Shown: piece by piece, positions 1 through 17,488 of the stretch | Layout of the letters: every line of letters begins with the position of its first letter | How positions within the stretch are numbered: the first letter of the stretch is position 1 | IMG/VR virus record: IMGVR_UViG_3300043570_001741 | Span: 93,714-157,713 of that record | From: a virus | Direction: 5' to 3' (one strand) | Length of the DNA stretch: 64,000 nt | The notes under the pieces: generated by a model | What the model was told of the DNA's origin: nothing | The model's database searches: none | Seen by the model: only the letters and a program-made list of their open reading frames with translations | Position numbers and translations under genes: made by a program

Positions 1-1
1 G

Positions 2-970: not shown

Positions 971-2066
971 CTGCTATTACCTTGTCAAGTGCTGGAATTT
1001 TTTCTGGATTTGCTTCCCAAGATGCTTTAGCTTGAGCACCAATTTGACCTTCATACGGGCAAGGTGTGCCTGCGGCCATCATAGCGTCAAACACTCTACG
1101 GTCTTGGCACATAGTAGCAACTGCAGCTACTTTCATACCCATATCATAAAGAGTCTTGGACAACTTCAGGCGTTCGCAATTCAGGTCTCTGACAGTACCA
1201 CCACTAGACACACCAAAAATCTGCGTCTGAACAGAACCAGAAGTTCCTGTTGAACACAAATCGGTATTTCCACCACTCATCATTGCCGGTGCAACAGCTG
1301 TTGGAGGAGGTTGAATAACTTTCTGAGTGATAGTTGATTCATTTATGTTACGATTCGTCATGTCACCAGAGTTAATGTTTTGGTTAACATTAGCATTTTG
1401 GTTAACACTTGTACTGGTACTGGCTGATGTTGAAGCATTGATATTACGATTGGTCATATCGCCACTATTCACATTATTGTTTTGGTTAACACTAGTGCTT
1501 GTATTAACGTTTGTATTTCTACTATCACTGGTTGAAGCATTGACATTGTTGTTATTGTATGTCATTGTACCGGTGTTTTCACTTTTATTGATATTGGTTG
1601 ATGTACTGGTGCTATTATTGTTATTGTTAAATGTCTGAGTTCCGCTATTGACGTTGTTGTTTGTGTTTACGCTGGTAGAGGTTGAAGCATTGACATTATT
1701 GTTATTGTTGGTCATTGTGCCGCTATTGACGTTATTATTGTTAAACGTCTGAGTACCAGAATTTACGTTGTTGTTATTGTTTGTATAAGTGACTGAACCA
1801 CTCATAACGTTGTTGTTGTTATTGTTGTTTGTCAGAGTACCGCTATTGACATTGTTATTGTTGTTGGTATTGGTACTTGTACTGCCAACTGTAGTTTGGT
1901 TGATATTGGTTATAGTGCCACTGTTAACATTATTTGTGTTAACGGTACTTGTGCTGGTGCTTGTGCTATTTGTGTCTACCAGACTTTTAGTATCATATGT
2001 GGTCTGAGCGAAAGCCCCGCCACCAATCATAACAAAAAGAAGCGCAGCTATCTTTTTGCGTAGCAT
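906..2066 (-). CDS. Secreted Asn/Thr-rich repeat protein with Cys-containing C-terminal domain
   Basis: Signal peptide ending AFA|Q; about 230 aa of NNNVNSGTxT repeats; C-terminal PPPTAVAP...CERLKLSKTLYDMGMKVAAV...GTPCP; AAGGA SD. Confidence 0.9.
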   Translation of the reverse strand: MLRKKIAALLFVMIGGGAFAQTTYDTKSLVDTNSTSTSTSTVNTNNVNSGTITNINQTTVGSTSTNTNNNNNVNSGTLTNNNNNNNVMSGSVTYTNNNNNVNSGTQTFNNNNVNSGTMTNNNNNVNASTSTSVNTNNNVNSGTQTFNNNNNSTSTSTNINKSENTGTMTYNNNNVNASTSDSRNTNVNTSTSVNQNNNVNSGDMTNRNINASTSASTSTSVNQNANVNQNINSGDMTNRNINESTITQKVIQPPPTAVAPAMMSGGNTDLCSTGTSGSVQTQIFGVSSGGTVRDLNCERLKLSKTLYDMGMKVAAVATMCQDRRVFDAMMAAGTPCPYEGQIGAQAKASWEANPEKIPALDKVIADDTHKKIGIGAVLGVLVHKLF

Positions 2067-2122
2067 TTCTTTTTCCTTTTATGTTTTTGTTTCCTATCAA
2101 ATGGTTCATTAAACTATATGGG

Positions 2123-2130
2123 TATTTATG
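2123..2130 (-). promoter_or_regulatory. T4-type late promoter (CATAAATA)
   Basis: One-mismatch variant of the gp55 consensus TATAAATA, about 55 nt upstream of the 2066 start. Confidence 0.6.
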
Positions 2131-2150
2131 CCTCCATTGACTCCACACGC

Positions 2151-2204
2151 TGTTGTTTTGGCACAACATAGGCTCTTGATTAATTTGACTACATATGTTA
2201 TACT
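2151..2204 (+). promoter_or_regulatory. Early sigma70 promoter with upstream TGTTG-N8-CAACA palindrome
   Basis: Palindrome 2151-2168; TTGATT 2176-2181, 17 bp spacer, TG-extended TATACT 2199-2204. Confidence 0.75.
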
Positions 2205-2226
2205 AGAACATAAACAAGGACTTTAT

Positions 2227-2493
2227 ATGTCAGATGGAATCTACATACTAAAGACGGCTGATGGTTTTCGTGTTACTTACTCAAAACGATATGATGATTT
2301 TGTGACAATTGAAGGCAAGTTGGTTGGTCTTTCGGTAAATGAATGTTTTGGTTCATGTGAACCTTTACGAACACAGGAAAATGCTATGGATGTGGCACAA
2401 CGGCTTGCGAGAAAATACCACGAAACCGATGATGGTATTTGTTTGATTGAAATAGGTAAAAAACAAACATTTGATGAAATTGTAGGAATTTAA
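2227..2493 (+). CDS. Hypothetical protein (start moved from 2128)
   Basis: AAGGA SD before ATG 2227, downstream of the promoter. Confidence 0.75.
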   Translation: MSDGIYILKTADGFRVTYSKRYDDFVTIEGKLVGLSVNECFGSCEPLRTQENAMDVAQRLARKYHETDDGICLIEIGKKQTFDEIVGI

Positions 2494-2494
2494 A

Positions 2495-3547
2495 ATGGCT
2501 ACTAGACATTTAAAAATTGAAGAACCAAAATTTATTAATGAGATGACCACTATTCAATTAATGAATAGTTTAAATTGGTATCATCAGAATAAAGAATATA
2601 AAGAAGGTGTTAATTACATCCAAGATTATGCCAAGAAGCATAAAATTGAAGGCCGTGTTGATACCTCAAAAAGCATTTTAACATTAGCTTGGGCTTGCCG
2701 TCTTGTGATGAACGGAAATGATATTGGTGAAAAAGGTCGAAACTTTTTAAATGCCGAAATCAGAAATGTCATGCAAAAAGAAGTTGAAGAAGCATCGGTT
2801 AAAGTTGATACAACACCGACAGTTTCAATTCAGGAAAGATTGCGTGAAAAGGTTGCAGAAATTGCTGGTGACCTTGAAGGTGCTATTGACGATTATATTG
2901 AAAATGACTTTGCCCACCCAGCGTCACCTTTTGCTATTATGCAAGACAGAGCTAAAGGCGTTCATGCACAAAGGTTGATTGAGCAGTTTAAGAAACGCAG
3001 GATTGAATTTGATGAAGTGTTACACACCAAAGATGCTGAAATTAAAGAAGGTTATGGCAACTTTACTAAACCACAACTGAAGAAGATTGTGGCTTTGTGT
3101 GATGCTATCATTACTGATGCCATGAAGATTGCTGGTGAAGCCAAAGTTAATCGTAAACCACGTAAACGTAAACAAAAATCTGCCGATGAATTGGTGGCTA
3201 AGATGAATTACTGCCAAGAGTTTGCAGAATTGAAGTTAAAATCGGTTGCACCAAAAGAAGTCATTGGTGCGTTACAAGTTTGGGTATATAATACCAAGAC
3301 TAGAAAATTAGGTTGTTATCATGCAGAAGATGCTGGCGGCATTTCAGTCAAAGGGTCATCGCTGTTGAATTTCAATGAGACCAAATCGGTACAGAAGAAA
3401 CTCAGAAAACCAGAAGTTACTTTGCCTGAAGTATTGAAAGGTGGCAAAATTTATCTAAGAAGTGCAATAGATAACATTAAAGCTGTAGATTCAGCCTTGA
3501 CAGGACGTATCAATGGTGATACAATCTTGGTGCGCTGTATTAAATAA
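2495..3547 (+). CDS. Hypothetical phage protein, 350 aa, basic C-terminal half
   Basis: Long ORF in operon; no recognised motif. Confidence 0.8.
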   Translation: MATRHLKIEEPKFINEMTTIQLMNSLNWYHQNKEYKEGVNYIQDYAKKHKIEGRVDTSKSILTLAWACRLVMNGNDIGEKGRNFLNAEIRNVMQKEVEEASVKVDTTPTVSIQERLREKVAEIAGDLEGAIDDYIENDFAHPASPFAIMQDRAKGVHAQRLIEQFKKRRIEFDEVLHTKDAEIKEGYGNFTKPQLKKIVALCDAIITDAMKIAGEAKVNRKPRKRKQKSADELVAKMNYCQEFAELKLKSVAPKEVIGALQVWVYNTKTRKLGCYHAEDAGGISVKGSSLLNFNETKSVQKKLRKPEVTLPEVLKGGKIYLRSAIDNIKAVDSALTGRINGDTILVRCIK

Positions 3548-3555
3548 GGATTATT

Positions 3556-4389
3556 ATGAAGATTGCTGTTTGTTCCGATATTCACCTAGAATTCGGTCCT
3601 ATTGAATTAGAAAACACCGACAATGCCGATGTGCTGATATTGTCTGGTGACATTTGTGTAGCTAAAGACTTGCCTTATAGTGATTCTAAAAAGGGTGGTA
3701 TAGCTAGAGACTTTTTTAGAATGTGTGCTTTGAGATTTCCGCATGTACTCTATGTTATGGGTAATCATGAGCATTATAATGGAGATTTTGCCAAGAGTGC
3801 CAAGATTATCAAAGAAGAACTTGCTCAATATGCTAATGTCCATCTACTTGATAAAGAAATCAAATTGATTGGTGATGTTACCTTTATTGGTGGAACATTG
3901 TGGACTGATATGAACAAGGAAGATGGAATCACTTTATATCATATGAAAACTATGATGAATGATTTTATGTGTGTAACAAATGCAAACCGAGAAACGTCTT
4001 ATAAAGATGAAGGTGGAATGAATCATACAAGAAAAACTCGCTTTACTCCAGAAGATGCGGTTGAAGACCACAAAAAAATGGTAGGTTACATTAAACAAAT
4101 TGTTGTTGAGAAGCCTGATGAGAAATTTGTTGTGGTTGGCCATCATGCGCCAAGTAAAGCTTCTACTCATCCTAGATATATCAAAGAAGAAATTATGAAT
4201 GGTGGATATAGCTCTGATTTGTCGGAGTTTATACTAGATAGGCCACAAATTAAATTGTGGACACATGGACATACGCATGAAGAATTCGATTACATGATTG
4301 GGTCTACCCGTATTGTTTGCAACCCACGTGGTTACATTAATTACGAAGACCGTGCTGATAAATTTACTTTAAAAACTGTGGAGATTTAA
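3556..4389 (+). CDS. Calcineurin-like metallophosphoesterase
   Basis: SDIH, GD, GNHE, HH and HGHTH motifs. Confidence 0.9.
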   Translation: MKIAVCSDIHLEFGPIELENTDNADVLILSGDICVAKDLPYSDSKKGGIARDFFRMCALRFPHVLYVMGNHEHYNGDFAKSAKIIKEELAQYANVHLLDKEIKLIGDVTFIGGTLWTDMNKEDGITLYHMKTMMNDFMCVTNANRETSYKDEGGMNHTRKTRFTPEDAVEDHKKMVGYIKQIVVEKPDEKFVVVGHHAPSKASTHPRYIKEEIMNGGYSSDLSEFILDRPQIKLWTHGHTHEEFDYMIGSTRIVCNPRGYINYEDRADKFTLKTVEI

Positions 4390-4390
4390 A

Positions 4391-4912
4391 ATGGGATACA
4401 ATTATAGCCGATACGAAGAACTAGTCACGATGCTCATGGAAGCTTCATGGCGTGACCCCGAAGATTTGGAAATTGGTAGGGATATTTCAGACCAACCAGA
4501 AGTTAAAATTATTTTTGATGGTTATGGTGATTTAGAAATTGACAATGGTGTTGATGAGTATCAATATAAAGAAGGTGGCAACACCAAGATGGAATCATAT
4601 GCCATCTTTATTCACAAGGATGCATTAGAACCTGAGTTTATATTCCCTGAGCATGAGCTGACTCCTTGGGCTTTGATTCATAGACCAAAAGAAGAAATCT
4701 GCATCTATGCATGGTATGACGTAGAGAATGACATTTGGGATATCTTACCAATTGAAGATAGGCTAGATGAAGATAATACAATGACTGCCGAAGATGTAAT
4801 GGTAATACTTGAAGGCCTCTATGAGTATTATTTTAAACCATGGGAAGGCAAGTTTACGAATGACCCCGAAACTGGTTTGCCTAATTGGCCATTCCCTACC
4901 GCCAAACCTTAA
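4391..4912 (+). CDS. Acidic hypothetical protein
   Basis: ORF with GGAG SD; D/E-rich. Confidence 0.75.
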   Translation: MGYNYSRYEELVTMLMEASWRDPEDLEIGRDISDQPEVKIIFDGYGDLEIDNGVDEYQYKEGGNTKMESYAIFIHKDALEPEFIFPEHELTPWALIHRPKEEICIYAWYDVENDIWDILPIEDRLDEDNTMTAEDVMVILEGLYEYYFKPWEGKFTNDPETGLPNWPFPTAKP

Positions 4913-4938
4913 TTATTGCCTCACTAGTGATGAATTTG

Positions 4939-4947
4939 TGATATACT
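4939..4947 (+). promoter_or_regulatory. Extended -10 promoter (TGnTATACT) for rnh
   Basis: TGATATACT ending 6 nt before ATG 4954; no SD. Confidence 0.55.
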
Positions 4948-4953
4948 GACTGT

Positions 4954-5802
4954 ATGATTATATTTGATTTTAACCAAGTTGCTATTTCTAATCTGATGGA
5001 ACAAATCGGTTCGTCTAAGACTGCGGTCGAAGAAAGTCTGGTTCGCCACATGATTCTTAATAGCTTGCGTACCTATGTGAAGAAGTTTCGTGACTCACAT
5101 GGGCCAGAAGTTATCATTGCTTGCGACAATAAAAAATATTGGCGCCGTGATATCTTCCCACACTATAAAGCCAGTCGGAAGAAAATGCGTGAGGCATCTG
5201 GACATGATTGGGTTACTATCTTTGAATGTTTGAGTAAAATCAAACAAGAATTGAAAGACCATTCTCCATATAAAGTTATTGATGTTGACTCATGCGAAGC
5301 TGATGATGTTATTGCTGTATTGGCAACAAAATACTCAGCTACTCAAAAGGTTATGATTCTGTCAAGTGATAAAGACTTTGCTCAATTGCAAAAGTTTCCT
5401 AACGTAGAACAGTATTCACCAATTCTAAAGAAGTTCATTCGTGAGCCTTTACCTTCAGCTCAACTCAAACAACTTATTATTCGAGGAGACAAAGGCGATG
5501 GCATCCCTAATATTCTTAGTGCTGATGATTGCTTTATTACTGCGACTAGGCAGAAACCAATAACTGAAGCAAAAATCATTAATTGGATGAATCAGCAACC
5601 TTCAGAGTTTTGTAATGAAGATATGATGAGGAACTATTCTCGTAATGAGAATTTGATTGATTTGACGATGATTCCGTCAACTCTGAAGGTTGCTATACTA
5701 GATACCTATGATAACACCAAAGGTAAGACTAAACAAGAGTTTATGAACTATCTGATGGTGAATCGACTTAAAAATTTGTTAGAAGTAATTGATGAATTTT
5801 GA
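4954..5802 (+). CDS. rnh: T4-like RNase H / 5'-3' exonuclease
   Basis: WRR..FPHYKASR, EADDVIA, SSDKDFAQLQ and GDKGDGIPNILS motifs. Confidence 0.95.
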   Translation: MIIFDFNQVAISNLMEQIGSSKTAVEESLVRHMILNSLRTYVKKFRDSHGPEVIIACDNKKYWRRDIFPHYKASRKKMREASGHDWVTIFECLSKIKQELKDHSPYKVIDVDSCEADDVIAVLATKYSATQKVMILSSDKDFAQLQKFPNVEQYSPILKKFIREPLPSAQLKQLIIRGDKGDGIPNILSADDCFITATRQKPITEAKIINWMNQQPSEFCNEDMMRNYSRNENLIDLTMIPSTLKVAILDTYDNTKGKTKQEFMNYLMVNRLKNLLEVIDEF

Positions 5803-5820
5803 TATAACCCACTTGAGAAC

Positions 5821-6252
5821 ATGATGAGCTCTGAAAAACTATACTCCGAAATTTTTGAAGATTTCGATAAATGCAAAAACAAAGAAGAACGTATTGGCGT
5901 GTTACGGAAGAATTTTCATCCACGCTTTGCTGAATTCTTGCAAATGGCATTTCACCCAAATATTGAATTTGATGTACCAATCCCGAATTACAGACCGGCA
6001 ACTGAACCTGCTGGTTTGAATTTCTCGTATATTGATACTGAGATTTCTAAGATGTATCGATTCATTAAAGGTCATCCAAAACGACCTGAAGGATTGACAC
6101 CACATAAACAAACTAGTATTCTGTTGGTCATTCTAGAATCACTACATAAAGACGAAGCTGAACTGCTTGTTAAATTGTTCAAAAAAGATTTAGGTGTAAA
6201 ATACCTAACATTGAATCTTGTTAAAGAAGCATATCCAACTTTAAACATTTAA
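5821..6252 (+). CDS. Conserved T4-like phage protein (DUF6433-like)
   Basis: LESLHKDEAELL...LVKEAYP pattern and position directly after rnh. Confidence 0.65.
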   Translation: MMSSEKLYSEIFEDFDKCKNKEERIGVLRKNFHPRFAEFLQMAFHPNIEFDVPIPNYRPATEPAGLNFSYIDTEISKMYRFIKGHPKRPEGLTPHKQTSILLVILESLHKDEAELLVKLFKKDLGVKYLTLNLVKEAYPTLNI

Positions 6253-6253
6253 A

Positions 6254-6679
6254 ATGAAATTTGTTGTTGTGACGGGTGGGTTTGATCCCATCCATTCTGG
6301 TCATATTGAATATATACGTGAAGCTGCCAAGCTTGGTGATGTGTTGATTGTTGGTGTAAATTCTGATGAATGGTTGACTCGTAAAAAAGGTAAACCATTT
6401 ATGAATTGGAATGAACGATCCATTATCGTTAATGAATTGCGACACGTTGATTTTGTTTTGAAGTTTGATGACTCTGATGATTCTGCTTGTAGTTTATTAG
6501 AAGACTTGAAAAGAAGCTGGATTGGTAAAGGTGATGAGATTATCTTTGCAAATGGTGGTGATAGAAACAACACAAACAACCGTGAAGTTAAAGTTGAAGG
6601 TATAACATTTGTATATGGAGTTGGTGGCTCAAATAAAATGAATTCATCATCCGATATTTTGAAAGCGTGGAAAGAATGA
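6254..6679 (+). CDS. Cytidylyltransferase-like nucleotidyltransferase (TagD/RfaE-II family)
   Basis: GGFDPIHSGH (HxGH), GVNSDEWL.RKKG and FANGGDR motifs. Confidence 0.9.
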   Translation: MKFVVVTGGFDPIHSGHIEYIREAAKLGDVLIVGVNSDEWLTRKKGKPFMNWNERSIIVNELRHVDFVLKFDDSDDSACSLLEDLKRSWIGKGDEIIFANGGDRNNTNNREVKVEGITFVYGVGGSNKMNSSSDILKAWKE

Positions 6680-7428
6680 AAGTAGCAGTAATAACTCCTA
6701 CAATTGGTTCAGAGTATTTGCAACAATGCATTAACTCTGTAGATAAACAAACTTATGAAAATTTAACCCATTACATTTTTGTTGATGGTGCTCAGTACGA
6801 GGAAAAGGTCAATGATACAATTCAAGGCGCTACCAAAGTCAAAACCATCCGTCTTGAGGAGAATGTTGGTAAAGGTTGGTATGGCCACAGGGTTTACTCC
6901 GCTTGTTCTTTTCTTGTTAATGCTGATGTAATTTGTTATTTGGATGAGGACAATTGGTTTGACAGTTGCCATGTAGAAAAACTTGTCAAGAAAATTCAAG
7001 CTGGAAATGATTGGGCATATTCTTTAAGGAAAATTTATGATAAAGATGCAAACTACCTCTTTGAGGACAACTGTGAAAGCCTTGGTAAATGGCCTGTATA
7101 TTTTGATGACCAAGTATTCCATATTGATACCTCAAGTTTTGCTGTTAAGCGTGACGTTGCTGCTCGCATCGGGCATGCTTGGTATGGCCAATGGGGCGCA
7201 GATAGGCAATTCTTTGCTAACTTGAAACAACACTTTCCAAGATTTGAATGCTCTAACACACATACACTTTGCTATCGTTTAGATGGTAATGATAATTCTG
7301 TTAAATCAGATTTCTTTGTTGGTGGTAATGAAAAGATGGAAGCAAAATATGGAAAAGATTTTCCATGGAAAAAACAAAACAACTTCCATAAGATTCAAAT
7401 TGCACCAGGTATTGTGATTGTAGAATGA
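6676..7428 (+). CDS. GT2 family glycosyltransferase
   Basis: VAVITPT...L..CINSV..QTY N-terminus, YLDEDN DxD motif; ATGA overlap with the previous stop. Confidence 0.88.
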   Translation: MKVAVITPTIGSEYLQQCINSVDKQTYENLTHYIFVDGAQYEEKVNDTIQGATKVKTIRLEENVGKGWYGHRVYSACSFLVNADVICYLDEDNWFDSCHVEKLVKKIQAGNDWAYSLRKIYDKDANYLFEDNCESLGKWPVYFDDQVFHIDTSSFAVKRDVAARIGHAWYGQWGADRQFFANLKQHFPRFECSNTHTLCYRLDGNDNSVKSDFFVGGNEKMEAKYGKDFPWKKQNNFHKIQIAPGIVIVE

Positions 7429-7925
7429 TTGAGTTTACAGACCTAGAAGAAGTATTGTTGGTCACACCTCCTATGGTCTTTGAAGATTTCCGTGGAACAA
7501 ACGTAGAAATTTTCAATAAAGCCTTGTATGGGAATGGTGTCTTAGATAAAGTCAAATGGAAAATTGATAGTGTCAGCACATCGAGGCAACATGTCTTACG
7601 TGGTGTTCACGGAGACGAAAAGACCTACAAGTTGATTAGTTGTCTTTATGGTACAATCTATTTGTTGGTCGTTGATAATAGACCTTGGTCGCCACAATAT
7701 AAAGAGTGGACATCTTTTACTTTATCCGACAAGAATCACAAACAAGTTTTAGTACCACCAGGCTTTGGCAATGGCCATCTGGTTATGTCTGAAACTGCGG
7801 TGTTTCATTACAAGTGGTCGGAGTATTATGACCAAGAAGCACAATTTACAATCAAATGGAATGATCCAGAATATGAATTCTGGTGGCCAGTTAAACACCC
7901 TATTTTATCCCTAAGAGATTACTAA
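7425..7925 (+). CDS. rmlC: dTDP-4-dehydrorhamnose 3,5-epimerase-like cupin
   Basis: FEDFRG, VLRGVH, VPPGFGNGH, YKWSEYY and WNDP...WP motifs. Confidence 0.88.
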   Translation: MIEFTDLEEVLLVTPPMVFEDFRGTNVEIFNKALYGNGVLDKVKWKIDSVSTSRQHVLRGVHGDEKTYKLISCLYGTIYLLVVDNRPWSPQYKEWTSFTLSDKNHKQVLVPPGFGNGHLVMSETAVFHYKWSEYYDQEAQFTIKWNDPEYEFWWPVKHPILSLRDY

Positions 7926-8488
7926 TGAAAAAAGAAGACTTGATGATTCCTGCCGAAGAAAAGATTAGTATCGGTTTATTGAACGCACACGTACATTTTC
8001 TCTCAGGCGAAATTAATGAGGAAACTGTAAAGAGTGCTATTCAATGGATTGTATATGAAAACTTGAATACGTCAAGTGATACTCCCCTCAGTTTGTATAT
8101 CAATTCAACTGGTGGTGATTTGAGTGAAGCTTTTGCACTTACAGATATAATGCGTAATTCAAATCGTGTTATCAGAACGTTTGGTTTGGGTTCAGTATGC
8201 TCAGCCGCCTTTTTAATCTTTGCTTCAGGAACTCAGGGGCATAGATATATCGCTAAGAATACCAGTATTATGTGTCACCAATATGCTTCTGAAATGAATG
8301 GTAAATACCATGACATGAAAGCCTATGTACGTGAAAGTGAGCTTGCTAATACCCGAATGAATAAGTTATTGCAAGAATGTACTGGTATGGATTCTAGAAG
8401 CGTTAAAACTAAACTTCTTCCACCAAGTGATGTTTGGTTTACCGCTGAAGAATTAGTAGAACTAAGTGTAGCAGACCAAATTTTTTAG
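7925..8488 (+). CDS. clpP: ClpP-like serine protease subunit
   Basis: LYINSTGG, catalytic Ser in CSAAFLIFASG, His in MCHQ, Asp in DVWFTAEE. Confidence 0.88.
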   Translation: MKKEDLMIPAEEKISIGLLNAHVHFLSGEINEETVKSAIQWIVYENLNTSSDTPLSLYINSTGGDLSEAFALTDIMRNSNRVIRTFGLGSVCSAAFLIFASGTQGHRYIAKNTSIMCHQYASEMNGKYHDMKAYVRESELANTRMNKLLQECTGMDSRSVKTKLLPPSDVWFTAEELVELSVADQIF

Positions 8489-8505
8489 GAGAAGTGTTTT
8501 CTAGT

Positions 8506-8658
8506 ATGTTAAGCGGCGGTAAAAAGGTTGAAAAACCTCAAAGAACAAAATTTAGAAAGAATACGGATAATTTGAATCAGAAGAATTCGAATAAACCGAA
8601 ACACCATGACCGATCCTTTTATCGGTTAGTAAAAGAGGAAAAAGAATATGTCTTATAG
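8506..8658 (+). CDS. Small basic hypothetical protein, 50 aa (possible in-frame GTG start at 8494)
   Basis: Hand translation MLSGGKKVEKPQRTKFRK...; AGGAG upstream. Confidence 0.6.
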   Translation: MLSGGKKVEKPQRTKFRKNTDNLNQKNSNKPKHHDRSFYRLVKEEKEYVL

Positions 8659-8815
8659 AAATAACCTCAGAGAACGAATTGCTGAATTGCAAAAAGAAAT
8701 TACCGAAGACAAAGGTCAAATCGAAGCCTTGAAAAAAGAATTGAAAAGACTTGAAATGGCTGAATTTGAAGAAGATTTGTCGGAAGAATCTAATCAGCAA
8801 CTACTAAAAGGTTGA
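8648..8815 (+). CDS. Small coiled-coil protein, 55 aa
   Basis: Hand translation MSYRNNLRERIAELQKEITEDKGQIEALKKELKRLEMAEFEED...; GAGG SD. Confidence 0.7.
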   Translation: MSYRNNLRERIAELQKEITEDKGQIEALKKELKRLEMAEFEEDLSEESNQQLLKG

Positions 8816-8868
8816 TGTTGTTTTAATACAACAACCCGCTTGACATTTCCATCAATATCTGTTAAGGT
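8816..8868 (+). promoter_or_regulatory. Early sigma70 promoter with TGTTG-N8-CAACA palindrome
   Basis: Palindrome 8816-8833; TTGACA 8840-8845, 17 bp spacer, TG-extended TAAGGT 8863-8868. Confidence 0.75.
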
Positions 8869-8874
8869 ATTGGT

Positions 8875-9258
8875 ATGAGTGAAATTCTGCAAGAAACTAC
8901 AATTTGGACAGGCCATTATGGTGCCTGTAATCACACGTATTTACTAGATAATCAAAATAAGATTATCGCATATATCAAACAAAATGATAATAAAGTAAAT
9001 ATATTAAAAACCCAAATCAAACTAGATAAACGTTATCGGACATTTAATAAAGTCCGTAATATTCAATTAGAATTATTATCTGGTAAATCCATAAAGAATA
9101 ATACCCGTATATTCAAAGTAAAAAGTAAAGATAAAGAATATAATGTTGAATTAATAGATTCTCATTATACCTGCACCTGTACTGGTTTTAATTTTCGTGG
9201 TAAATGTAAACATATTGACGCTGTTGCAAAAACACTACAGTCTGCCGAAATCGCTTGA
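8875..9258 (+). CDS. SWIM zinc-finger protein
   Basis: YNV...CTCTGFNFRGKCKH (CxC-n-CxH). Confidence 0.85.
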   Translation: MSEILQETTIWTGHYGACNHTYLLDNQNKIIAYIKQNDNKVNILKTQIKLDKRYRTFNKVRNIQLELLSGKSIKNNTRIFKVKSKDKEYNVELIDSHYTCTCTGFNFRGKCKHIDAVAKTLQSAEIA

Positions 9259-9308
9259 CAAACCTGCCCGAATCTGTATAATGGTACCTGTTGAGTTGAT
9301 AAGGACAT
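9222..9308 (+). promoter_or_regulatory. Early promoter cassette, copy 1
   Basis: TGTTG-N8-CTACA 9222-9239; TTGACA 9255-9260; TATAAT 9277-9282; AAGGA SD. Confidence 0.85.
9275..9308 (+). repeat. 34-bp direct repeat (-10 box, leader, SD), identical to 11053-11086
   Basis: TGTATAATGGTACCTGTTGAGTTGATAAGGACAT at both sites. Confidence 0.95.
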
Positions 9309-9311
9309 CAA

Positions 9312-9548
9312 ATGAAAGATAAATTGACATGGGAATTGCAGGCATATGGCTCGCCTGCTGATGATATCATTGCTTCTGTGGAAGAATCAATGACTTTTAA
9401 ATTTTCAGGTGTGGGCATGGTCATTGCTTCGTACCTGTCGGATGCTCAAGAAATGTTAGAGCGTGACAACAAAAACGCTTCTCGCCAATATATCAATATT
9501 GCTAAAATGTTGATAATGCATTATGACCTTGGTTTCAAACGTGCTTAA
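9312..9548 (+). CDS. Hypothetical early protein
   Basis: ORF behind promoter and SD. Confidence 0.75.
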   Translation: MKDKLTWELQAYGSPADDIIASVEESMTFKFSGVGMVIASYLSDAQEMLERDNKNASRQYINIAKMLIMHYDLGFKRA

Positions 9549-9558
9549 GGATAAAAAA

Positions 9559-9831
9559 ATGTCTGCTACAAAAGAATACACCATCGAAATTTACAAAACC
9601 GACCGCCGCACAAAAGAAGGCCGCCGTCTGGTTGCTAAACAGGAATTTGCTCCTGTAACTAAAGATTACATCGGCTACGTAGCTGATGCAAAGCGCAATT
9701 TAGGTTTTACTGTAGAAGTTTTTGAAACCTGGGTTACTAAAAAGAATTTAATTTCTGGAAAAGAATATCAGGAAAAATACGATACACCGCATTTTTGCTC
9801 TGCTTCTTCAGAATCATATTGGTCAATGTAA
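9559..9831 (+). CDS. Hypothetical early protein (start moved from 9523)
   Basis: TAAGGA SD before ATG 9559; ends DTPHFCSASSESYWSM. Confidence 0.75.
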   Translation: MSATKEYTIEIYKTDRRTKEGRRLVAKQEFAPVTKDYIGYVADAKRNLGFTVEVFETWVTKKNLISGKEYQEKYDTPHFCSASSESYWSM

Positions 9832-9840
9832 GGATAAAAA

Positions 9841-10152
9841 ATGAAATTGCTCATCACCACACAAAATTTAGAAAACTACGGCGCCCATGATTGGGACGGA
9901 GTTGGCGAGTGCCCACAATATTGGAAAGCCAAGGGTGGTAGTGATTATGTGGTAAAGAATTTTACCAATTTCAATAATACCACAGAAGCCGTTATGGCTC
10001 TCCGTGGCCAAATTGAAGAGGACAGCGAGTATTATCGTTCCTTTATTATTGATTGGGAAGTTGTGGCTGATGACTACCTCACCGAGTTTGAGCAAATGCA
10101 GCTGGACTATGAAGGCAAGATTCGTTTTGCTGCCAAAGAATTGACATTGTAA
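9841..10152 (+). CDS. Hypothetical early protein
   Basis: ENYGAHDWDG..ECPQYWK.KGG motif; TAAGGA SD. Confidence 0.8.
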   Translation: MKLLITTQNLENYGAHDWDGVGECPQYWKAKGGSDYVVKNFTNFNNTTEAVMALRGQIEEDSEYYRSFIIDWEVVADDYLTEFEQMQLDYEGKIRFAAKELTL

Positions 10153-10161
10153 GGATATATT

Positions 10162-10296
10162 ATGTGGCGAATTGTTTATTTAAATGACAGATATGGTATA
10201 ATGAATTTGCTGACCGAAGAATGCTGCGGTTGGTATGAATTTAAATCGGATGCTAAAGAAGCTTTCGAATCTTTGCGTAAAAATGGAGAACTTTAA
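10162..10296 (+). CDS. Small hypothetical protein, 44 aa
   Basis: TAAGGA SD; MWRIVYLNDRYGIMNLLTEECCGWYEFK...; fills the intergenic gap. Confidence 0.6.
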   Translation: MWRIVYLNDRYGIMNLLTEECCGWYEFKSDAKEAFESLRKNGEL

Positions 10297-10298
10297 TT

Positions 10299-10646
10299 AT
10301 GGCTTATATGAACCAACAAAAGAAAGCAGTTATTGCTGCAGCTTTAAAACCTATTTTGAAAAAGTACAATCTCAAAGGTTCTTTGCGGGTTAACAATCAT
10401 TCAAGCATTATGTTAAACCTGAAATCTGGCCCAATTGATTTTGGCGGTGATTATGTTCAGGTTAATCCTTATTGGCTCGATGACCATTATGATGGTGTAG
10501 CCTTAGAAGCTTTGAAAGAAATCAAAGAAGCTTTGCTCTCGGCTGATTATTATGACCATTCCGATGCTCAGACTGATTATTTCAATACGGCATATTATTA
10601 CCACATTCATGTTGGTAAATGGGATAAACCATACGTATGTCAATAA
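10299..10646 (+). CDS. Hypothetical protein, possibly related to LPD25/LPD29 polyvalent-protein domains
   Basis: SDAQTDYFN motif; family call is tentative. Confidence 0.5.
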   Translation: MAYMNQQKKAVIAAALKPILKKYNLKGSLRVNNHSSIMLNLKSGPIDFGGDYVQVNPYWLDDHYDGVALEALKEIKEALLSADYYDHSDAQTDYFNTAYYYHIHVGKWDKPYVCQ

Positions 10647-10984
10647 TTTATACTTACCAAAAGTCTAAAAAGAAAAGCAAGACCAAAAAGGAAATTGCTG
10701 AGTATCAGGCATGGCTTGATAGCGTCAACAATATGTCCACTGGCTTTTCTAAACTAAAACCTAAAGTGATAAATTCTGGTGTTCCGAAACTGACCACACC
10801 CGTTGGTCGTGAAACGCCAAAATATCCTAGTTTTGAAACGTTTGGTGGTTCTGCTACAAAACCAATTCAAGGTAAAGTTTATACTGGTACTGCTATGAAG
10901 GGTATTGGCACTTTGCACAAAAGCAATGCGGTTCCTATATTTTCGGATGAGGAAGCTCGTGACCAGGCATTGATGCGGAGATGA
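10637..10984 (+). CDS. Conserved phage hypothetical protein
   Basis: C-terminal YTGT..KGIGTLHKSNAVP..S.EEA.D...MRR pattern. Confidence 0.75.
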   Translation: MSIIYTYQKSKKKSKTKKEIAEYQAWLDSVNNMSTGFSKLKPKVINSGVPKLTTPVGRETPKYPSFETFGGSATKPIQGKVYTGTAMKGIGTLHKSNAVPIFSDEEARDQALMRR

Positions 10985-10999
10985 ATACTTTAGTATTAC

Positions 11000-11086
11000 T
11001 GTTGCTTTCACGCAACACCTGCCAAAAAGTGCTTGACTATCCTGCCAGTTTGTGTATAATGGTACCTGTTGAGTTGATAAGGACAT
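11000..11086 (+). promoter_or_regulatory. Early promoter cassette, copy 2
   Basis: TGTTG-N8-CAACA 11000-11017; TTGACT 11033-11038; TATAAT 11055-11060; SD. Confidence 0.85.
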
Positions 11087-11090
11087 TGAA

Positions 11091-11840
11091 ATGAATTTGC
11101 TATCTACAGGTAACCCCAAAATTTTAAAAGGTTTGGCACAAGGTTACAATACCTACATTTTGCACCTGGCTCCTGCTGACTTGTCAGGTTATGAAACCTG
11201 CGCTAAACGTACCATTGGTTGCACAGCTGCTTGCTTGAACCTCGCTGGTCGTGGCGGTATGTTCAAGCGTGGCGAATTTACCAACGTCATTCAAAAAGCT
11301 CGTATTCGCAAAACCAAAATGTTTTTCGAAGACCGTATTACATTTATGAATTTGTTGGTTAAAGATATTGAATTGGGCATTAAACAAAGCAAACGCCTTG
11401 GCTTAATTCCTGTTTTCCGTTTGAACGGCACCTCTGACCTTGCTTTTGAAAAGTATGAGGTCAACCGCAATGGACAAACCTATTCAAACATTTTCTACGC
11501 TTTTCCTGAAGTGACATTTTATGATTACACCAAAATTCTTGGTCGTAAAATTAAAATGGTTCCCAATTATTCGTTGACATTTTCTGCCGCTGATGGTAAT
11601 GATGCTGACGTTTATGCTGCCATTCAACAAGGTTACAATGTTGCTACGGTGTTCGGTTTGAAAAAGACTGAACCAATGCCTGATAGCTACATGGGTCGTC
11701 CTGTTTTTAATGGCGATGAATCAGACCTGCGGTTTCTGGATCCCAAAGGTGTTGTGGTCGGTTTGTATGCAAAAGGCAAAGCCAAAAAAGATACAACCGG
11801 TTTTGTAAAGTATCCAGTTCTAATGATGAAAGCTGCGTAA
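11091..11840 (+). CDS. GP88-family protein
   Basis: LAPA.LSG..TC......C...C, RLNGTSD and FYDYTK motifs. Confidence 0.75.
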   Translation: MNLLSTGNPKILKGLAQGYNTYILHLAPADLSGYETCAKRTIGCTAACLNLAGRGGMFKRGEFTNVIQKARIRKTKMFFEDRITFMNLLVKDIELGIKQSKRLGLIPVFRLNGTSDLAFEKYEVNRNGQTYSNIFYAFPEVTFYDYTKILGRKIKMVPNYSLTFSAADGNDADVYAAIQQGYNVATVFGLKKTEPMPDSYMGRPVFNGDESDLRFLDPKGVVVGLYAKGKAKKDTTGFVKYPVLMMKAA

Positions 11841-11974
11841 TGATAAAAGAATTTTTCTTCTACCTCGATGCATGGAAATTTTGTAGAGATAATGACCTTC
11901 CCGTATCTCTAATTGTCCGTAAAAATTGGAAAGTTTGGGAAGTTGATTTTGAAATGAATGAAATGGAGTCTTAA
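11840..11974 (+). CDS. Small hypothetical protein, 44 aa
   Basis: TAATG coupling; MIKEFFFYLDAWKFCRDNDLP... Confidence 0.6.
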   Translation: MIKEFFFYLDAWKFCRDNDLPVSLIVRKNWKVWEVDFEMNEMES

Positions 11975-12211
11975 ATGAAAAGATTGTTAGTTATCCCTTT
12001 AGTGTTATCTTTGGTTGCTTGCTCGTCAACACCAACCTATAAATTGACGAACTATAAAGGCCCTGAAGCCATGGACCGAAACGAAGCAGTACAAGCTGCT
12101 AAACAATGTGTGTTCGCTAAAATGCGACCAAATGTGGAATATATTTCCGTAAAAACCGATGCTGGTCCCAAAGTTATGGTGCCTATAAATGTTCATTGCG
12201 AACCATTTTGA
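11975..12211 (+). CDS. Lipoprotein
   Basis: MKR + hydrophobic stretch + LVAC lipobox. Confidence 0.8.
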   Translation: MKRLLVIPLVLSLVACSSTPTYKLTNYKGPEAMDRNEAVQAAKQCVFAKMRPNVEYISVKTDAGPKVMVPINVHCEPF

Positions 12212-12217
12212 TTGTAA

Positions 12218-12535
12218 ATGCTTAATCAGGAAACATTAGAACTGATTTTATTGGGTGGCATTGGTATTGTCATTCTTGGTTTTTTCTGGAGAATTATTGT
12301 TATTGGTGCTGCATTGCTTTTTGCTATTGTAGTTCTTGCTAACCATACACCACCTACTGAAACCAGAACCGTTGCACCTTCTGTGGTTGTGCAACAAGAG
12401 GTTGTAATAGAACCGCAAAAAGTGAACGACCCTCGCCGTGAGGAATACGTTCAAGGATGTGTAAGATATGGATTCACCAAGCAATCTTGTGAAGATTATT
12501 GGGATGGAAAAGTTGATAGTTTAATGGAGATTTAA
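12218..12535 (+). CDS. Membrane protein with C-terminal Cys pair
   Basis: Two N-terminal hydrophobic segments. Confidence 0.75.
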   Translation: MLNQETLELILLGGIGIVILGFFWRIIVIGAALLFAIVVLANHTPPTETRTVAPSVVVQQEVVIEPQKVNDPRREEYVQGCVRYGFTKQSCEDYWDGKVDSLMEI

Positions 12536-12536
12536 A

Positions 12537-12917
12537 ATGGGAACACGTAGTTTGACTTTTGTTTATGAAGAAAACAAACCAATTATCAACATGTACCGCC
12601 AATTCGATGGCTATCCAGAAGGTCACGGCCAAGAACTGGCTGATTTTCTGTTGTCTGGTAAATTGGTAAATGGTTTTTCTGAAACTCAAACCGTGCAGTT
12701 TAATGGCATGGGTTGCTTGGCAGCTCAGATGATTGCCAACTTTAAGAAATCTGTAGGAGGTTTCTACATTTATCCTATTGAATCTAATTCATGCTGGCAA
12801 GATTATGAATACCACGTTTATGAAGAAACTGTGGTTGTAAAGAATCCCGACCAAGTTATCTTTGATGGCACTTGGGAAGAATTCAAAGCTTTCTGTTGCG
12901 AAATGGCGACAGACTGA
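12537..12917 (+). CDS. Conserved phage hypothetical protein
   Basis: MGTRS...YRQFDGYPEGHG and NGMGCLAAQ motifs. Confidence 0.8.
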   Translation: MGTRSLTFVYEENKPIINMYRQFDGYPEGHGQELADFLLSGKLVNGFSETQTVQFNGMGCLAAQMIANFKKSVGGFYIYPIESNSCWQDYEYHVYEETVVVKNPDQVIFDGTWEEFKAFCCEMATD

Positions 12918-12966
12918 GGCAACAATGGCGATGCCTCTTGACAAACTCGCCTATTTGTGTTACACT
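12894..12966 (+). promoter_or_regulatory. Early sigma70 promoter with TGTTG-N8-CGACA palindrome
   Basis: Palindrome 12894-12911; TTGACA 12938-12943, 17 bp spacer, TG-extended TACACT 12961-12966. Confidence 0.75.
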
Positions 12967-12997
12967 TGAAGTTCTTAAATTATATTGGAGTTATATT

Positions 12998-13426
12998 ATG
13001 GCCCGTGGAAAATCTACTAAACTAAAGCCCTTTCAGAAATTGTTGACCGTTATGATTAGCGGCAACCCAACAACAGTCGAAGAAATCGATGCCTTACTTG
13101 GCAAAGAAATCCAAATGTATCGCTTGTCGACCTACATTTGGCACATTAAGACCAATGCCGATGGCGTTGTTCGTGCAATCAAAGATGGTCGCAAAGTGAC
13201 CGCTTATCAAATCGTTAACGTTCCTGACGTTAAAAAATACATGAGTCGTGTTGGCATTACCAACAGCGGATTCGTAGCAGGTCAACCTGCACCAGCGCCT
13301 GTAACTAAGGCTAAGAAAACTAAGGTTGAGAAACTGGCTGACTTGGCCGCCACACCAATCGAAACACCAGTTATTGTTGAACCAGTAGCTGAGTTACAAG
13401 TGACAGAAATCACCGTAACGGAATGA
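12998..13426 (+). CDS. Putative winged-helix DNA-binding protein (start moved from 12872)
   Basis: GGAG SD; LLTVM...PTTVEEIDALLG...RLSTYIWHIK...GVVRAIKDGRKVTAYQI fits a wHTH pattern; low-complexity tail. Confidence 0.6.
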   Translation: MARGKSTKLKPFQKLLTVMISGNPTTVEEIDALLGKEIQMYRLSTYIWHIKTNADGVVRAIKDGRKVTAYQIVNVPDVKKYMSRVGITNSGFVAGQPAPAPVTKAKKTKVEKLADLAATPIETPVIVEPVAELQVTEITVTE

Positions 13427-13698
13427 AAGATGTGCAAAAAGAAATCCTTCTGATTGCTCAGGAGGAATGTGCAGAGGTCACCCAAGCTATTTCTAAAGTG
13501 TTTCGTTTCGGTATTGAGGCCAAATATAATGGCAAAACCAATCGTGAGCGCTTAACGGAAGAAGTTGGTGACCTTCTTTGCATGATTGATTTGATGGTTG
13601 AAAGAAAAATCATTGATGATACAAATGTACATGAAGCTATGCTAGCTAAAAAAGCAAAATTACAAACTTGGTCAAATATCTTTGGAGAAAATAAATGA
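13423..13698 (+). CDS. MazG-like NTP pyrophosphohydrolase
   Basis: EECAEV and EEVGDLL motifs. Confidence 0.8.
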   Translation: MKDVQKEILLIAQEECAEVTQAISKVFRFGIEAKYNGKTNRERLTEEVGDLLCMIDLMVERKIIDDTNVHEAMLAKKAKLQTWSNIFGENK

Positions 13699-14135
13699 GT
13701 TATATAATTACACTTGAGAACGATCCAGAAACTGGCGATTTGATTTTGCCATTGCCAGATGAATTGTTGAGAGAAGCTGGTTGGCAAACTGGCGACACTT
13801 TAGACTGGAAAGATAATGGTGATGGAACATTCACTATGACTAAAAAAGAAGAAACTGAATGGGTACTTGTTGAAGCTATCTCTCAGTTCCGTGAACGCTA
13901 TATGGTCGAAGTGCCAAAAGGCAAAGCAGAATGGGCTCTTGATACTGTAACCCTGAATGAAGCACAAGAATTTAGCCAAGAACATCTTGGTGAAGTGATT
14001 GTCTCTCACCGTGTTGTATCATTTGATGAAGCCTTGGAAATGTGTGATAAAGATAATCACTATTGTAAAGATTGGGACAATGAGCACAAGATAAGAGCCT
14101 TCTTTTCAAAAGAAGGCGTAAAGTATGACGTATGA
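13695..14135 (+). CDS. AbrB/SpoVT-like domain protein with C-terminal extension
   Basis: GDLILPLPDELL..AGW..GD.L.W motif. Confidence 0.65.
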   Translation: MSYIITLENDPETGDLILPLPDELLREAGWQTGDTLDWKDNGDGTFTMTKKEETEWVLVEAISQFRERYMVEVPKGKAEWALDTVTLNEAQEFSQEHLGEVIVSHRVVSFDEALEMCDKDNHYCKDWDNEHKIRAFFSKEGVKYDV

Positions 14136-14680: not shown

Positions 14681-14960
14681 TTTTTTAGACACCGAAACAG
14701 GTGAAGAATTTGAATCATTTATGAGCATTTCTGCTCGTGAAGAATATCTACAAACCAATCCAACAATTCATTCAGTTGTAACATCGGCTGCAATTGTTAG
14801 TGGAGTTTCCGTTACTGGTAAAGTGCCTGATGGATTCAAAGAAGTGCTTTCTAAAATTTCAGAGAATCACAAATCAAGTGAAGTTGCTAGTCGTCATGGC
14901 CAGCGTTCATCAAAAGAAATTAAGACCAAACAATTGGTTGATAAACACATAGGAAGATAA
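14667..14960 (+). CDS. FmdB-like small protein (Cys-less variant)
   Basis: MPLYSF....TGEEFE N-terminus and GFKEVLSKI motif. Confidence 0.6.
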   Translation: MPLYSFLDTETGEEFESFMSISAREEYLQTNPTIHSVVTSAAIVSGVSVTGKVPDGFKEVLSKISENHKSSEVASRHGQRSSKEIKTKQLVDKHIGR

Positions 14961-14962
14961 GT

Positions 14963-15655: not shown

Positions 15656-15656
15656 A

Positions 15657-16690: not shown

Positions 16691-16705
16691 AAAAGAAAGG
16701 ATAGG

Positions 16706-17474: not shown

Positions 17475-17488
17475 ACTAGGAGTATATT

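Follow-up and report, generated by a model that had tools for sequence, protein, structure and literature searches.

Palindromes and early promoters at the locus

The stretch of DNA analysed here (the window, 64,000 nucleotides) is part of a 157.7-kb record of a T4-like phage. Five of its sigma70-type promoters are each preceded by a copy of the 18-bp palindrome TGTTG-N8-CAACA (Table 1). A first-pass annotation had reported these five copies, and all are present, three of them exact and two with one mismatch. The gaps of 7, 6, 15, 15 and 26 bp that it gave between palindrome and -35 box are confirmed on the sequence, as is the location of two copies within coding sequences. Palindrome copies inside coding sequence persist in three different reading frames. 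The promoter at 54904 lacks the palindrome, as had also been noted, the best match within 120 bp upstream having five mismatches.

The promoters at 9255 and 11033 have a 31-nt leader in common. At the promoter at 8840, 6 nt separate the end of the -10 box from the ATG at 8875, and the transcript would therefore be leaderless, or almost so. The early cassettes, each formed by a palindrome and its promoter, are located among small ORFans. Genes for GIY-YIG and HNH endonucleases share regions with the palindromes.

Table 1. Palindrome copies, associated promoters and two candidate DNA-binding proteins in the window.
Feature	Position	Strand	Context
Palindrome copy 1, exact (TGTTGT-N6-ACAACA)	2151..2168	.	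Divergent intergenic region; gap to -35 box 7 bp
Sigma70-type promoter TTGATT-N17-TATACT	2176..2204	+	Precedes 88-aa ORF starting at 2227
Palindrome copy 2, exact	8816..8833	.	Abuts stop codon of ORF 8648-8815; gap to -35 box 6 bp
Promoter TTGACA-N17-TAAGGT	8840..8868	+	Precedes SWIM zinc-finger ORF, ATG at 8875
Palindrome copy 3, CTACA arm, one mismatch	9222..9239	.	Within 3' end of ORF 8875-9258; gap 15 bp
Consensus promoter TTGACA-N16-TATAAT	9255..9282	+	Precedes 78-aa ORF at 9312
Palindrome copy 4, exact	11000..11017	.	Intergenic; gap to -35 box 15 bp
Promoter TTGACT-N16-TATAAT	11033..11060	+	Precedes GP88-family ORF 11091-11840
Palindrome copy 5, CGACA arm, one mismatch	12894..12911	.	Within 3' end of ORF 12537-12917; gap 26 bp
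Promoter TTGACA-N17-TACACT	12938..12966	+	Precedes operon: 142-aa ORF, MazG, AbrB-like, Pyr_excise-like
146-aa protein, sub-threshold AbrB/MazE-like N-terminus	13695..14135	+	Very weak candidate reader
DsbA-like 90-aa gene, PF11126	17489..17761	+	T4 double-stranded-DNA-binding transcription regulator family; weak candidate reader

Enrichment and promoter linkage

The exact palindrome occurs three times in the window against 0.29 expected, and none of 100 shuffles gave three copies. The whole genome holds eight exact copies and none of the reversed control. Promoter-like sites (score at least 10 of 12) lie 0-30 bp downstream of five of the eight exact copies (P ~ 6e-8) and of 11 of the 33 copies with at most one mismatch (P ~ 3e-12). 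The five promoter-linked copies first described are all real but are an undercount, the whole genome having 13.

The strong sigma70-type promoters are bimodal. In 13 of them the motif is present with no more than one mismatch, whereas the best match of another 13 has three to five mismatches. The motif marks about half of the strong early promoters in this phage and also in many relatives. Some copies are in tandem (genome positions 79370 and 79429), and a phage-like contig has three 18-mers that abut one another (G007:C18:1060-1113).

Anatomy of the palindrome

The fuller motif is cTGTTGY-N6-RCAACAg, a palindrome of 18-20 bp with an A/T-tract core and a centre of AA or TT in 64% of sites. The half-site statistics were obtained from 201 non-redundant sites of this genome and of IMG/VR (uncultured-virus) contigs. 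In the proximal sites (gap of 4-8 bp, n=99), position 6 is Y in 97% and position 13 is R in 98%, neither of which was demanded by the search. The element has two conserved inverted half-sites at a fixed spacing around a variable core, as in a generic dimeric operator.

As hairpins the copies are weak. The computed energies range from -2.3 to -12.1 kcal/mol (median about -5.5), with stems of 5-6 bp. Positions 6 and 13 form Watson-Crick pairs in 101 sites against 105.8 expected, a C-A mismatch is present in 24% of sites, and the 201 non-redundant sites show no base-pair covariation at this inner Y/R pair. Among about 200 non-redundant sites no pairing extends into the flanks. No G+C-rich stem with a T-run, as in an intrinsic terminator, was found: no copy is followed by a T-run and the terminator scan lists none of the five copies. 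The window has no Rfam match in positions 1-20000.

Spacing to the -35 box

The gap peaks at 6 bp in 45 of 97 seeded cases, the proximal seed having admitted gaps of 4-8 bp equally. The distal set comprises 113 other phage contigs seeded uniformly over gaps of 9-39 bp. In these contigs the non-redundant gaps of at least 11 bp are periodic, with a period of 10-10.5 bp and a phase of about 5-6 (p <= 0.002), and the distal copies favour gaps of about 6 (mod 10-10.5) bp. The GP88 orthologue has its site at a gap of 15 bp here and of 6 bp in a relative.

The phasing by about one helical turn that had been proposed from the five copies therefore holds in an independent set of contigs, but it is imperfect. 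One complete genome or lineage uses a 3-bp gap, gaps of 9-10 and 18-20 bp exist too, and when the shoulder at 9-10 bp is counted the best period is about 9 bp. Helical phasing is a preference, not a rule.

Conservation and spread among phages

Of 13 clade members, 12 retain the palindrome upstream of their cobS orthologues, which have 46-58% amino-acid identity; two of the 12 have the CGACA arm. The arms are preserved, while the core and the flanks have diverged. In the pelagiphage HTVC008M the orthologous cobS promoter lacks the palindrome. The cassette is present on at least 120 IMG/VR contigs, and 97 of 120 have genes in common with this phage; related promoters are not fully independent samples. 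Four complete genomes of 150-172 kb and one large record (56% complete) hold 2-10 promoter-linked copies each, against none for the controls. Relatives of gp32 with 88-100% identity account for all 120 matches listed, so that they number at least 120, and one cluster is found on 217 contigs. The carrier phage group is very common in metagenomes.

The cassette was not found in eight cultured T4-like or related phages, T4 included, in line with the earlier remark that such a regulatory layer is not described for T4 itself. By megablast the early region has no match to cultured phages. Ralstonia phage RSP15 was rejected as a motif user, none of its five exact copies lying upstream of a promoter. 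Use in truly unrelated phages was not confirmed: the contigs that share no genes with this phage are small fragments of larger phages (6-12% complete). A literature search found no paper for the motif string and nothing relevant for the arm sequence, and the repeated promoter of the pf16 paper differs from this motif.

Comparison with known regulatory sites

The T4 MotA box is an asymmetric 9-mer of the TGCTT type that replaces the -35 box at about -30. The MotA box with AsiA resembles the palindrome in being a phage-specific cis element that sets apart a temporal subclass among the sigma70-dependent promoters of a T4-type phage. However, the -35 boxes are intact here and the palindrome lies further upstream. 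The LexA SOS box of the gamma- and beta-proteobacterial type is CTGT-N8-ACAG and usually overlaps the promoter, whereas the palindrome, where flanked by C and G, reads CTGT-N12-ACAG and is placed upstream of the -35 box. The first-pass annotation was correct in separating the palindrome from both.

The nearest mechanistic analogue appears to be the 18-bp TyrR box. This box is TGTAAA-N6-TTTACA, and activation depends on the helix face and on the alpha C-terminal domain of RNA polymerase. Both elements are 18-bp palindromes of TGT-N12-ACA geometry with an A/T-rich centre, located upstream of sigma70 promoters. On the other hand, the inner arm bases of the phage sites are TGY/RCA (97-98% of sites) and not AAA/TTT, and no recognisable TyrR-like or HTH_8 protein is encoded in five motif-bearing phage genomes.

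The CRP site is TGTGA-N6-TCACA, with class I centres at -61.5 and -71.5, and Fis at rrn P1 recognizes a 15-bp degenerate core. These systems also place symmetric dimer sites upstream of the -35 box, at positions one helical turn apart. They differ in sequence and in half-site spacing, and the centres here are near -50, -60 and -70. Neither TGTGA-N6-TCACA nor the TTGAT-N4-ATCAA of CRP/FNR-type sites matches the palindrome, in arms or in spacer length. In phage phi29, a p4 dimer on an inverted repeat upstream of sigma-A promoters operates the early/late switch via the alpha C-terminal domain. The dimer predicted here would similarly sit at an inverted repeat upstream of a promoter, but phage family, sequence and host are unrelated and no p4-like protein was recognised.

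Interpretation of the palindrome

The weak hairpins without covariation, the copies that persist in several reading frames, the arms kept upstream of cobS and the periodic gaps argue together for a dimer that binds in a sequence-specific manner to a single face of the DNA, which is probably the best reading of the palindrome (probability about 0.65). The palindrome would then be an operator, read as double-stranded DNA by a symmetric dimer with one TGTTGY half-site per subunit. The operator centres, near -50, -60 and -70, would lie on the same helix face upstream of about half of the sigma70-type early promoters. From there the bound dimer may contact RNA polymerase, most plausibly its flexible alpha C-terminal domains, in the manner of class-I factors, and would modulate initiation at promoters that the host sigma70 already recognises. 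Such an operator would define an early-gene sub-regulon across a broad clade of uncultured T4-like phages. A role in boosting or recruitment is favoured, though with somewhat less than an even chance, over one in holding or shutting off early transcription, which is rather doubtful. The core promoters are already near-consensus, so the need for an activator is not obvious.

The nearest published concept appears to be the promoter-early stem-loop (PeSL) cassette. These stem-loops lie just upstream of sigma70-like early promoters in the hyperplastic regions of RB49/phi1, T4/PST and KVP40/nt-1, some with a lineage-specific stem consensus (PMC2839356, PMC4122927). They are described as having stable stems, often of poly-G/poly-C, with demonstrated termination of transcription, and their position with respect to the promoter varies (Arbiol 2010, PMC2839356; Comeau 2014, PMC4122927). 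As an element of this type, the palindrome would act as a stem-loop in RNA or single-stranded DNA that terminates or attenuates upstream transcripts or marks them for processing, and the repeated DNA would provide homology for the shuffling of small early ORFs. The likeness is considerable. In the variable regions of this T4-like phage, the palindrome is an inverted repeat directly upstream of early promoters of the sigma70-like kind, among small variable ORFs that here are likewise ORFans, and it has a lineage-specific stem consensus. An association with gene shuffling may exist too: gene order and cassette presence around the cassettes vary among close relatives (G000 compared with L108, L121, L101 and L040), and two promoters share a leader. 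However, the computed stems are not those of a stable terminator or attenuator, the arms are invariant over deep divergence with no compensatory change at positions 6 and 13, and a 5-6 bp arm with a variable core is too short for homologous recombination. Nor would a hairpin function lead one to expect gaps to the -35 box that recur with a period of about 10 bp. The weak stem without T-run, the invariant and non-covarying arms and the periodic distance point to protein recognition rather than to a PeSL hairpin, which is an unlikely explanation, albeit the one that survives best among the alternatives.

Slightly less probable is a module that needs no separate factor, either UP-like or curved DNA read by the alpha C-terminal domains of RNA polymerase, or an A-tract core that bends the DNA. 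At the commonest spacing the A/T-tract core lies at about -53 to -48, in the UP-element zone, its centre is mostly AA or TT, and strong early promoters must compete with host promoters. The conserved information, however, is in the G/C-containing arms TGTTGY/RCAACA and not in the A/T core, which sets the element apart from the UP consensus. Positions of about -60 and -70 are used as well, and half of the strong promoters lack the element.

The palindrome could also serve another DNA transaction (replication initiation, site-specific recombination, homing-endonuclease recognition or a modification target) and travel with the promoter cassettes. The tandem and abutting copies and the nearby endonuclease genes would fit this explanation, but the tight directional linkage to -35 boxes at periodic distances and the conservation at orthologous promoters make it very improbable, and no recombinase or endonuclease was found that co-occurs consistently. 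Least probable of all is an absence of function, with chance matches or one promoter cassette that was duplicated recently: paralogy is clear for some promoters (those with the common leader) and single cassette matches in bacterial chromosomes are at about chance frequency by estimate, yet this reading is already contradicted by the control data (shuffles and reversed controls at about zero), by cores and flanks that differ between copies and by arms conserved upstream of orthologues with about 50% protein identity.

Search for a binding protein

The predicted sequence-specific dimer would imply a reader, encoded with about equal probability by the phage or by its host. No recognisable HTH_8 (Fis/NtrC-type helix-turn-helix) was detected in five motif-bearing genomes, the search controls being positive, and none of the helix-turn-helix families was found among 28 small early ORFs. 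AsiA and MotCF gave no match in the window's own genome, in searches run without a positive control. A set of proteins is shared by all four other motif-bearing genomes and missing in two motif-free ones, but no DNA-binding domain could be recognised in any of them. About 90 early or clade-specific proteins were scanned against Pfam and PHROG, which gave only three possible binders of DNA. Of these, the DsbA-like protein does not occur in the motif-bearing G003, and the cassette is lacking in T4, the phage whose protein defines this family. The AbrB-like domain is present in only three of the five motif-bearing genomes, and an HTH_7 protein (genome 77038-77538) was found in none of the other four. 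These three were set aside, the DsbA-like and AbrB-like proteins being no more than weak candidate readers.

Two proteins of the shared set were modelled and also set aside. A 115-aa basic protein (window 10637-10981) occurs in all motif-bearing genomes, yet for the most part AlphaFold models it as a disordered chain. For a 223-aa clade-specific protein (window 16019-16687), the model (pLDDT 71) has no fold match and the protein atlas gives only unnamed viral clusters. The first proposal, a dimeric factor controlling an early regulon, is supported on the side of the DNA, where the palindrome is non-random, promoter-linked, conserved, built of two half-sites and periodic at about a helical turn, but no DNA-binding protein that tracks the motif was found.

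Implications for early-gene timing

For transcriptional timing in phages, T4 is the example found in textbooks. To our knowledge, the MotA/AsiA middle-mode machinery is missing from most environmental T4-like phages. Tentatively, and at somewhat less than even odds, this very abundant clade, in whose one tested genome AsiA and MotA were not detected, may use a helically phased operator to sort its early promoters into two classes. Its reader would be a protein of unrecognised fold or family, either a phage ORFan or a TyrR/NtrC-type regulator taken over from the host. If true, early genes would be timed independently of MotA, and part of the "PeSL stem-loops" would be reinterpreted. A conserved, position-constrained operator on half of the early promoters would offer a handle on the order of early expression in environmental T4-like phages, and the defined 18-mer is usable as bait, reporter element and genomic marker. 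Should the reader come from the host, the motif could help to assign hosts to these uncultured phages.

The motif in bacterial genomes

A rough estimate over 251 Pseudomonadota genomes puts the bare motif at about twice the frequency of the reversed control, and in a search for a host regulon no genome stands out among them. In the three top-scoring genomes the sites have G/C-mixed cores and no promoter link. Single cassette matches in Firmicutes chromosomes (infC/L20 leader, tRNA, metK and valS promoters) were also discarded, at about chance frequency by estimate.

A similar arrangement is found in Planctomycetota, at an NtrB/NtrC-like operon. This cassette differs from that of the phage in being chromosomal, with one or two copies per genome, in a position 6 that is not limited to Y and in its leaderless genes. 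It consists of TGTTGnTTTTTTGCAACA, about 7 bp and TTGACA-N16-18 (mostly N18)-TATAAT, and is conserved across several orders. The cassette precedes a PAS histidine kinase or, in one genome, a REC-sigma54-HTH_8 regulator instead.

Palindrome copies and their promoters

A pattern search of the window returned three exact copies of TGTTG-N8-CAACA against 0.29 expected, a number reached by 0 of 100 dinucleotide-preserving shuffles, and two copies with one mismatch. Downstream of each of the five a sigma70-type promoter can be read. The positions reported by the first-pass annotation, the distances to the -35 hexamer, the placement of two copies within coding sequence and the lack of a copy at promoter 54904 were all reproduced (see table).

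The whole genome contains eight exact copies versus none for the reversed control, and 13 copies with at most one mismatch are placed immediately upstream of strong promoters. The motif is enriched at promoters over background genome-wide (P ~6e-8 when only exact copies are counted, ~3e-12 when one mismatch is allowed). The strong promoters are bimodal: 13 have a copy within one mismatch of the motif, and at 13 the best match has 3-5 mismatches. Since they split into two classes, the motif marks a subclass of the early promoters, which includes those of cobT, cobS and many small ORFans, as well as one promoter inside the tRNA cluster.

The virus record (157,713 bp, 38% G+C, estimated completeness 95%), of which the window covers bases 93,714-157,713, is T4-like in gene content, with gp32, gp59, a gp33-type late coactivator, a DsbA-like protein, a T4-type RNase H, baseplate and tail genes and a CobS/CobT-like pair. 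Cultured phages are only distantly similar (24% identity for a tail protein, 49% for CobS), cyanophages being the best matches. Neither AsiA nor a MotA C-terminal domain was detected in this genome, both being weak negatives from searches run without a positive control.

Coordinates of the palindrome copies and associated features (genome, whole virus record)
Feature	Coordinates	Gap to -35 (bp)	Remarks
Palindrome, exact	window 2151	7	
Palindrome, exact	window 8816	6	
Palindrome, one mismatch	window 9222	15	in 3' end of ORF 8875-9258
Palindrome, exact	window 11000	15	
Palindrome, one mismatch	window 12894	26	in 3' end of ORF 12537-12917
Promoter without palindrome	window 54904		nothing similar in 120 bp upstream
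Palindrome between divergent consensus promoters (78763-78822)	genome 78787	12 (plus strand), 18 (minus strand)	minus-strand promoter lies ahead of a basic 172-aa ORF without family
Common leader, promoters 9255 and 11033	window 9283-9314, 11061-11093		~31 nt to start codon (GGTACCTGTTGAGTTGATAAGGACAT...)
Motif-bearing promoters, 6 nt from -10 box end to ATG	window 8863-8877; genome 84134-84148		SWIM-finger ORF at window 8875; 105-aa ORF at genome 84146
23 clustered tRNA genes	genome 86647-90274 (L129:14647-18274)		directly upstream of window
Promoters in tRNA cluster	genome 87222, 87915		motif-free; motif-bearing, preceding tRNA-Glu
Glycosyltransferase, family 2	window 6667-7428		early region
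RmlC-type dTDP-sugar epimerase and ClpP-type protease	window 7425-8488		early region
phrog_27048 protein	window 10637-10984		115 aa, very basic
Paralogous acidic ORFs	genome 82726-83159		63 and 81 aa, adjacent
Triple palindrome, phage-like contig in Bacteroidota MAG (L272)	G007:C18:1060-1113		three 18-bp copies abutting directly
Planctomycetota cassettes	L247, L260, L264, L266-L268, L275, L276, L279, L281-L283, L285, L288, L290-L293, L295, L297		

One explanation for the leader common to two of the promoters could be duplication of a 5' UTR; others might be a recombination footprint or an operator acting on translation. The transcripts of the two genes with the 6-nt distance would be, from the sequence, leaderless or almost leaderless; the relatives L108 and L289 share this arrangement. 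The epimerase, protease and glycosyltransferase genes are auxiliary and might hint at the host or at DNA or surface modification.

Anatomy of the element

The consensus of twelve genome copies is c-TGTTGY-N6-RCAACA-g. Its anatomy was derived from about 200 non-redundant promoter-linked sites of this genome and of IMG/VR contigs from uncultured viruses. With positions 6 and 13 left free in the search pattern, the proximal sites (gap of 4-8 bp, n=99) contain a pyrimidine at position 6 in 97% and a purine at position 13 in 98%. The centre is mostly an unbroken A- or T-tract, positions 9/10 being AA or TT in 64%. The intragenic copies occupy different reading frames and, therefore, the constraint acts on the DNA and not on the peptide.

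Stem-loops beside T4-like early promoters are already published as promoter-early stem-loops (PeSLs; PMC2839356, PMC4122927), which would make the palindrome a hairpin terminator and recombination cassette. A PeSL would be in keeping with where the element lies and with the gene shuffling around it, but the stems are weak (-2.3 to -12.1 kcal/mol on RNA folding, median ~-5.5), no T-run lies 3' of any folded copy and covariation is absent. Among 201 sites, positions 6 and 13 form Watson-Crick pairs in 101 cases versus 105.8 expected from column frequencies, C-A mismatches account for 24% and the flanks show no pairing. The periodic spacing would also remain unexplained, and a PeSL is considered unlikely. 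The anatomy points to a pair of putative half-sites for protein on double-stranded DNA rather than to a hairpin.

Spacing and helical phase

At least 120 IMG/VR contigs have the palindrome with TTGACA 4-8 bp downstream, many of them with 2-4 full cassettes (palindrome, gap and promoter). The seed weighted gaps 4-8 equally and, among the matches listed, the gap is 6 in 45/97 cases and 7 in 24/97. A second scan with a uniform seed for gaps 9-39 added 113 contigs. After removal of near-duplicates, the gaps of at least 11 peak at 14-16, 25-29 and 34-37 and are sparse at 11-13, 21-24 and 30-33. Their strongest period is 10-10.5 bp with phase 5-6 (p <= 0.002 by simulation), in register with the primary peak; the best period becomes ~9 bp once the shoulder at gaps 9-10 is counted. 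The GP88 gene has a gap of 15 in this genome versus 6 in the relative L040, so the site can lie one turn apart at orthologous promoters.

The steps of one helical turn claimed by the first-pass annotation hold as a strong preference, with exceptions at a minor cluster of 18-20 and in one complete genome with direct terminal repeats (G004; IMGVR_UViG_3300022752_000022, 149,598 bp). The latter has a gap of 3 instead of 6 at 7/10 promoters and often reuses one core, yielding TGTTGCATAAAAACAACA. If transcription starts ~7 nt past the -10 box, the site centres would be near -50, -60 and -70.

Proposed function

The palindrome is best read as an operator to which a symmetric dimer would bind, acting on RNA polymerase from one helix face, with a probability of roughly 0.65. 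Either sign of regulation is plausible because the core promoters are near-consensus. The bound factor may boost the early promoters, for instance so that they outcompete host promoters or so that early expression is coupled to the host state. Alternatively, a phage early protein may hold or shut off a subset of them. We lean slightly towards the boost.

Other readings fit less well than this operator: an UP-like element without a separate factor is somewhat less probable still than a PeSL, and a DNA site for a non-transcriptional purpose is improbable. A palindrome without function is the least credible.

Distribution among phages

Genes in common with this phage occur in 97/120 contigs among the matches listed. 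Four complete genomes (150-172 kb) and one large record (56% complete) contain 2-10 promoter-linked copies each, and the reversed controls none. Of 13 clade members, 12 have the palindrome ahead of their cobS orthologue (46-58% amino-acid identity), two of them with a CGACA arm, while the 8-bp core and the flanks have diverged; it is absent from the orthologous cobS promoter of pelagiphage HTVC008M. The cassette is absent from eight cultured T4-like or related phages (T4, RB49, phiM9, Mendera, RSP15, S-PRM1, HTVC008M and Vibrio phage 207E48.1) and, therefore, the element belongs to a large clade known from metagenomes alone. This clade is very abundant: at least 120 gp32 relatives were found at 88-100% identity, one cluster being on 217 contigs.

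Operators for dimers are commonplace ahead of promoters. The literature searched holds no description of one that is sequence-invariant and helically phased and that sets apart half of the early promoters in a very abundant uncultured T4-like clade.

The triple palindrome of the contig binned in the Bacteroidota MAG has two further copies within 1.4 kb, forming an array instead of single sites.

The cassette in cellular genomes

The full cassette gave 53 matches in 185,579 prokaryote genomes. The single Firmicutes matches are estimated to be near chance level. About 20 of the 53 are orthologous Planctomycetota promoters, with the 18-mer kept across several orders; the same architecture is therefore in use by cells. 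Their cassette consists of TGTTGnTTTTTTGCAACA, ~7 bp and TTGACA-N16-18 (mostly N18)-TATAAT and immediately precedes a leaderless PAS histidine kinase, which in L285 is replaced by a REC-sigma54-HTH_8 regulator (of the NtrC type, activating sigma54). The cassette probably serves its two-component system as the autoregulatory site. Proteins of the TyrR, NtrC and GlrR kind read sites with TGT...ACA geometry and, by analogy only, the Planctomycetota cassettes may point to such readers. No genome with a large regulon of the motif was found in a sample of 251 Pseudomonadota genomes.

Search for a binding protein

Pfam and PHROG scans of ~90 proteins, co-occurrence and models yielded no convincing reader of the palindrome. 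HTH_8 (Fis/NtrC-type helix-turn-helix) is absent from all five motif-bearing genomes in a search whose controls were recovered. Only three of the scanned proteins are possible DNA binders. The DsbA-like protein is a weak candidate: iterative search finds it in 4/5 motif-bearing genomes (undetected in G003) and in neither of the two motif-free genomes. T4, whose own protein defines the family, lacks the cassette. The sub-threshold AbrB/MazE-like domain, a very weak candidate, occurs in 3/5 motif-bearing genomes, and the HTH_7 protein is absent from the four motif-bearing genomes other than this one. A reader would be equally likely to be encoded by the phage or by the host.

The proteins found in all motif-bearing and no motif-free genomes are enzymes, small acidic proteins or unknowns. 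Two unknowns with this distribution were modelled, one giving a largely disordered chain and the other a fold without match. The first of these, the phrog_27048 protein with its invariant HKSNAVP motif and mostly disordered AlphaFold model, is present in 5/5 motif-bearing genomes, 28/120 of the related contigs listed and 0/2 motif-free genomes. The paralogous acidic ORFs, both with an HFGIKE end, are kept in all motif-bearing genomes and missing from the two motif-free ones.
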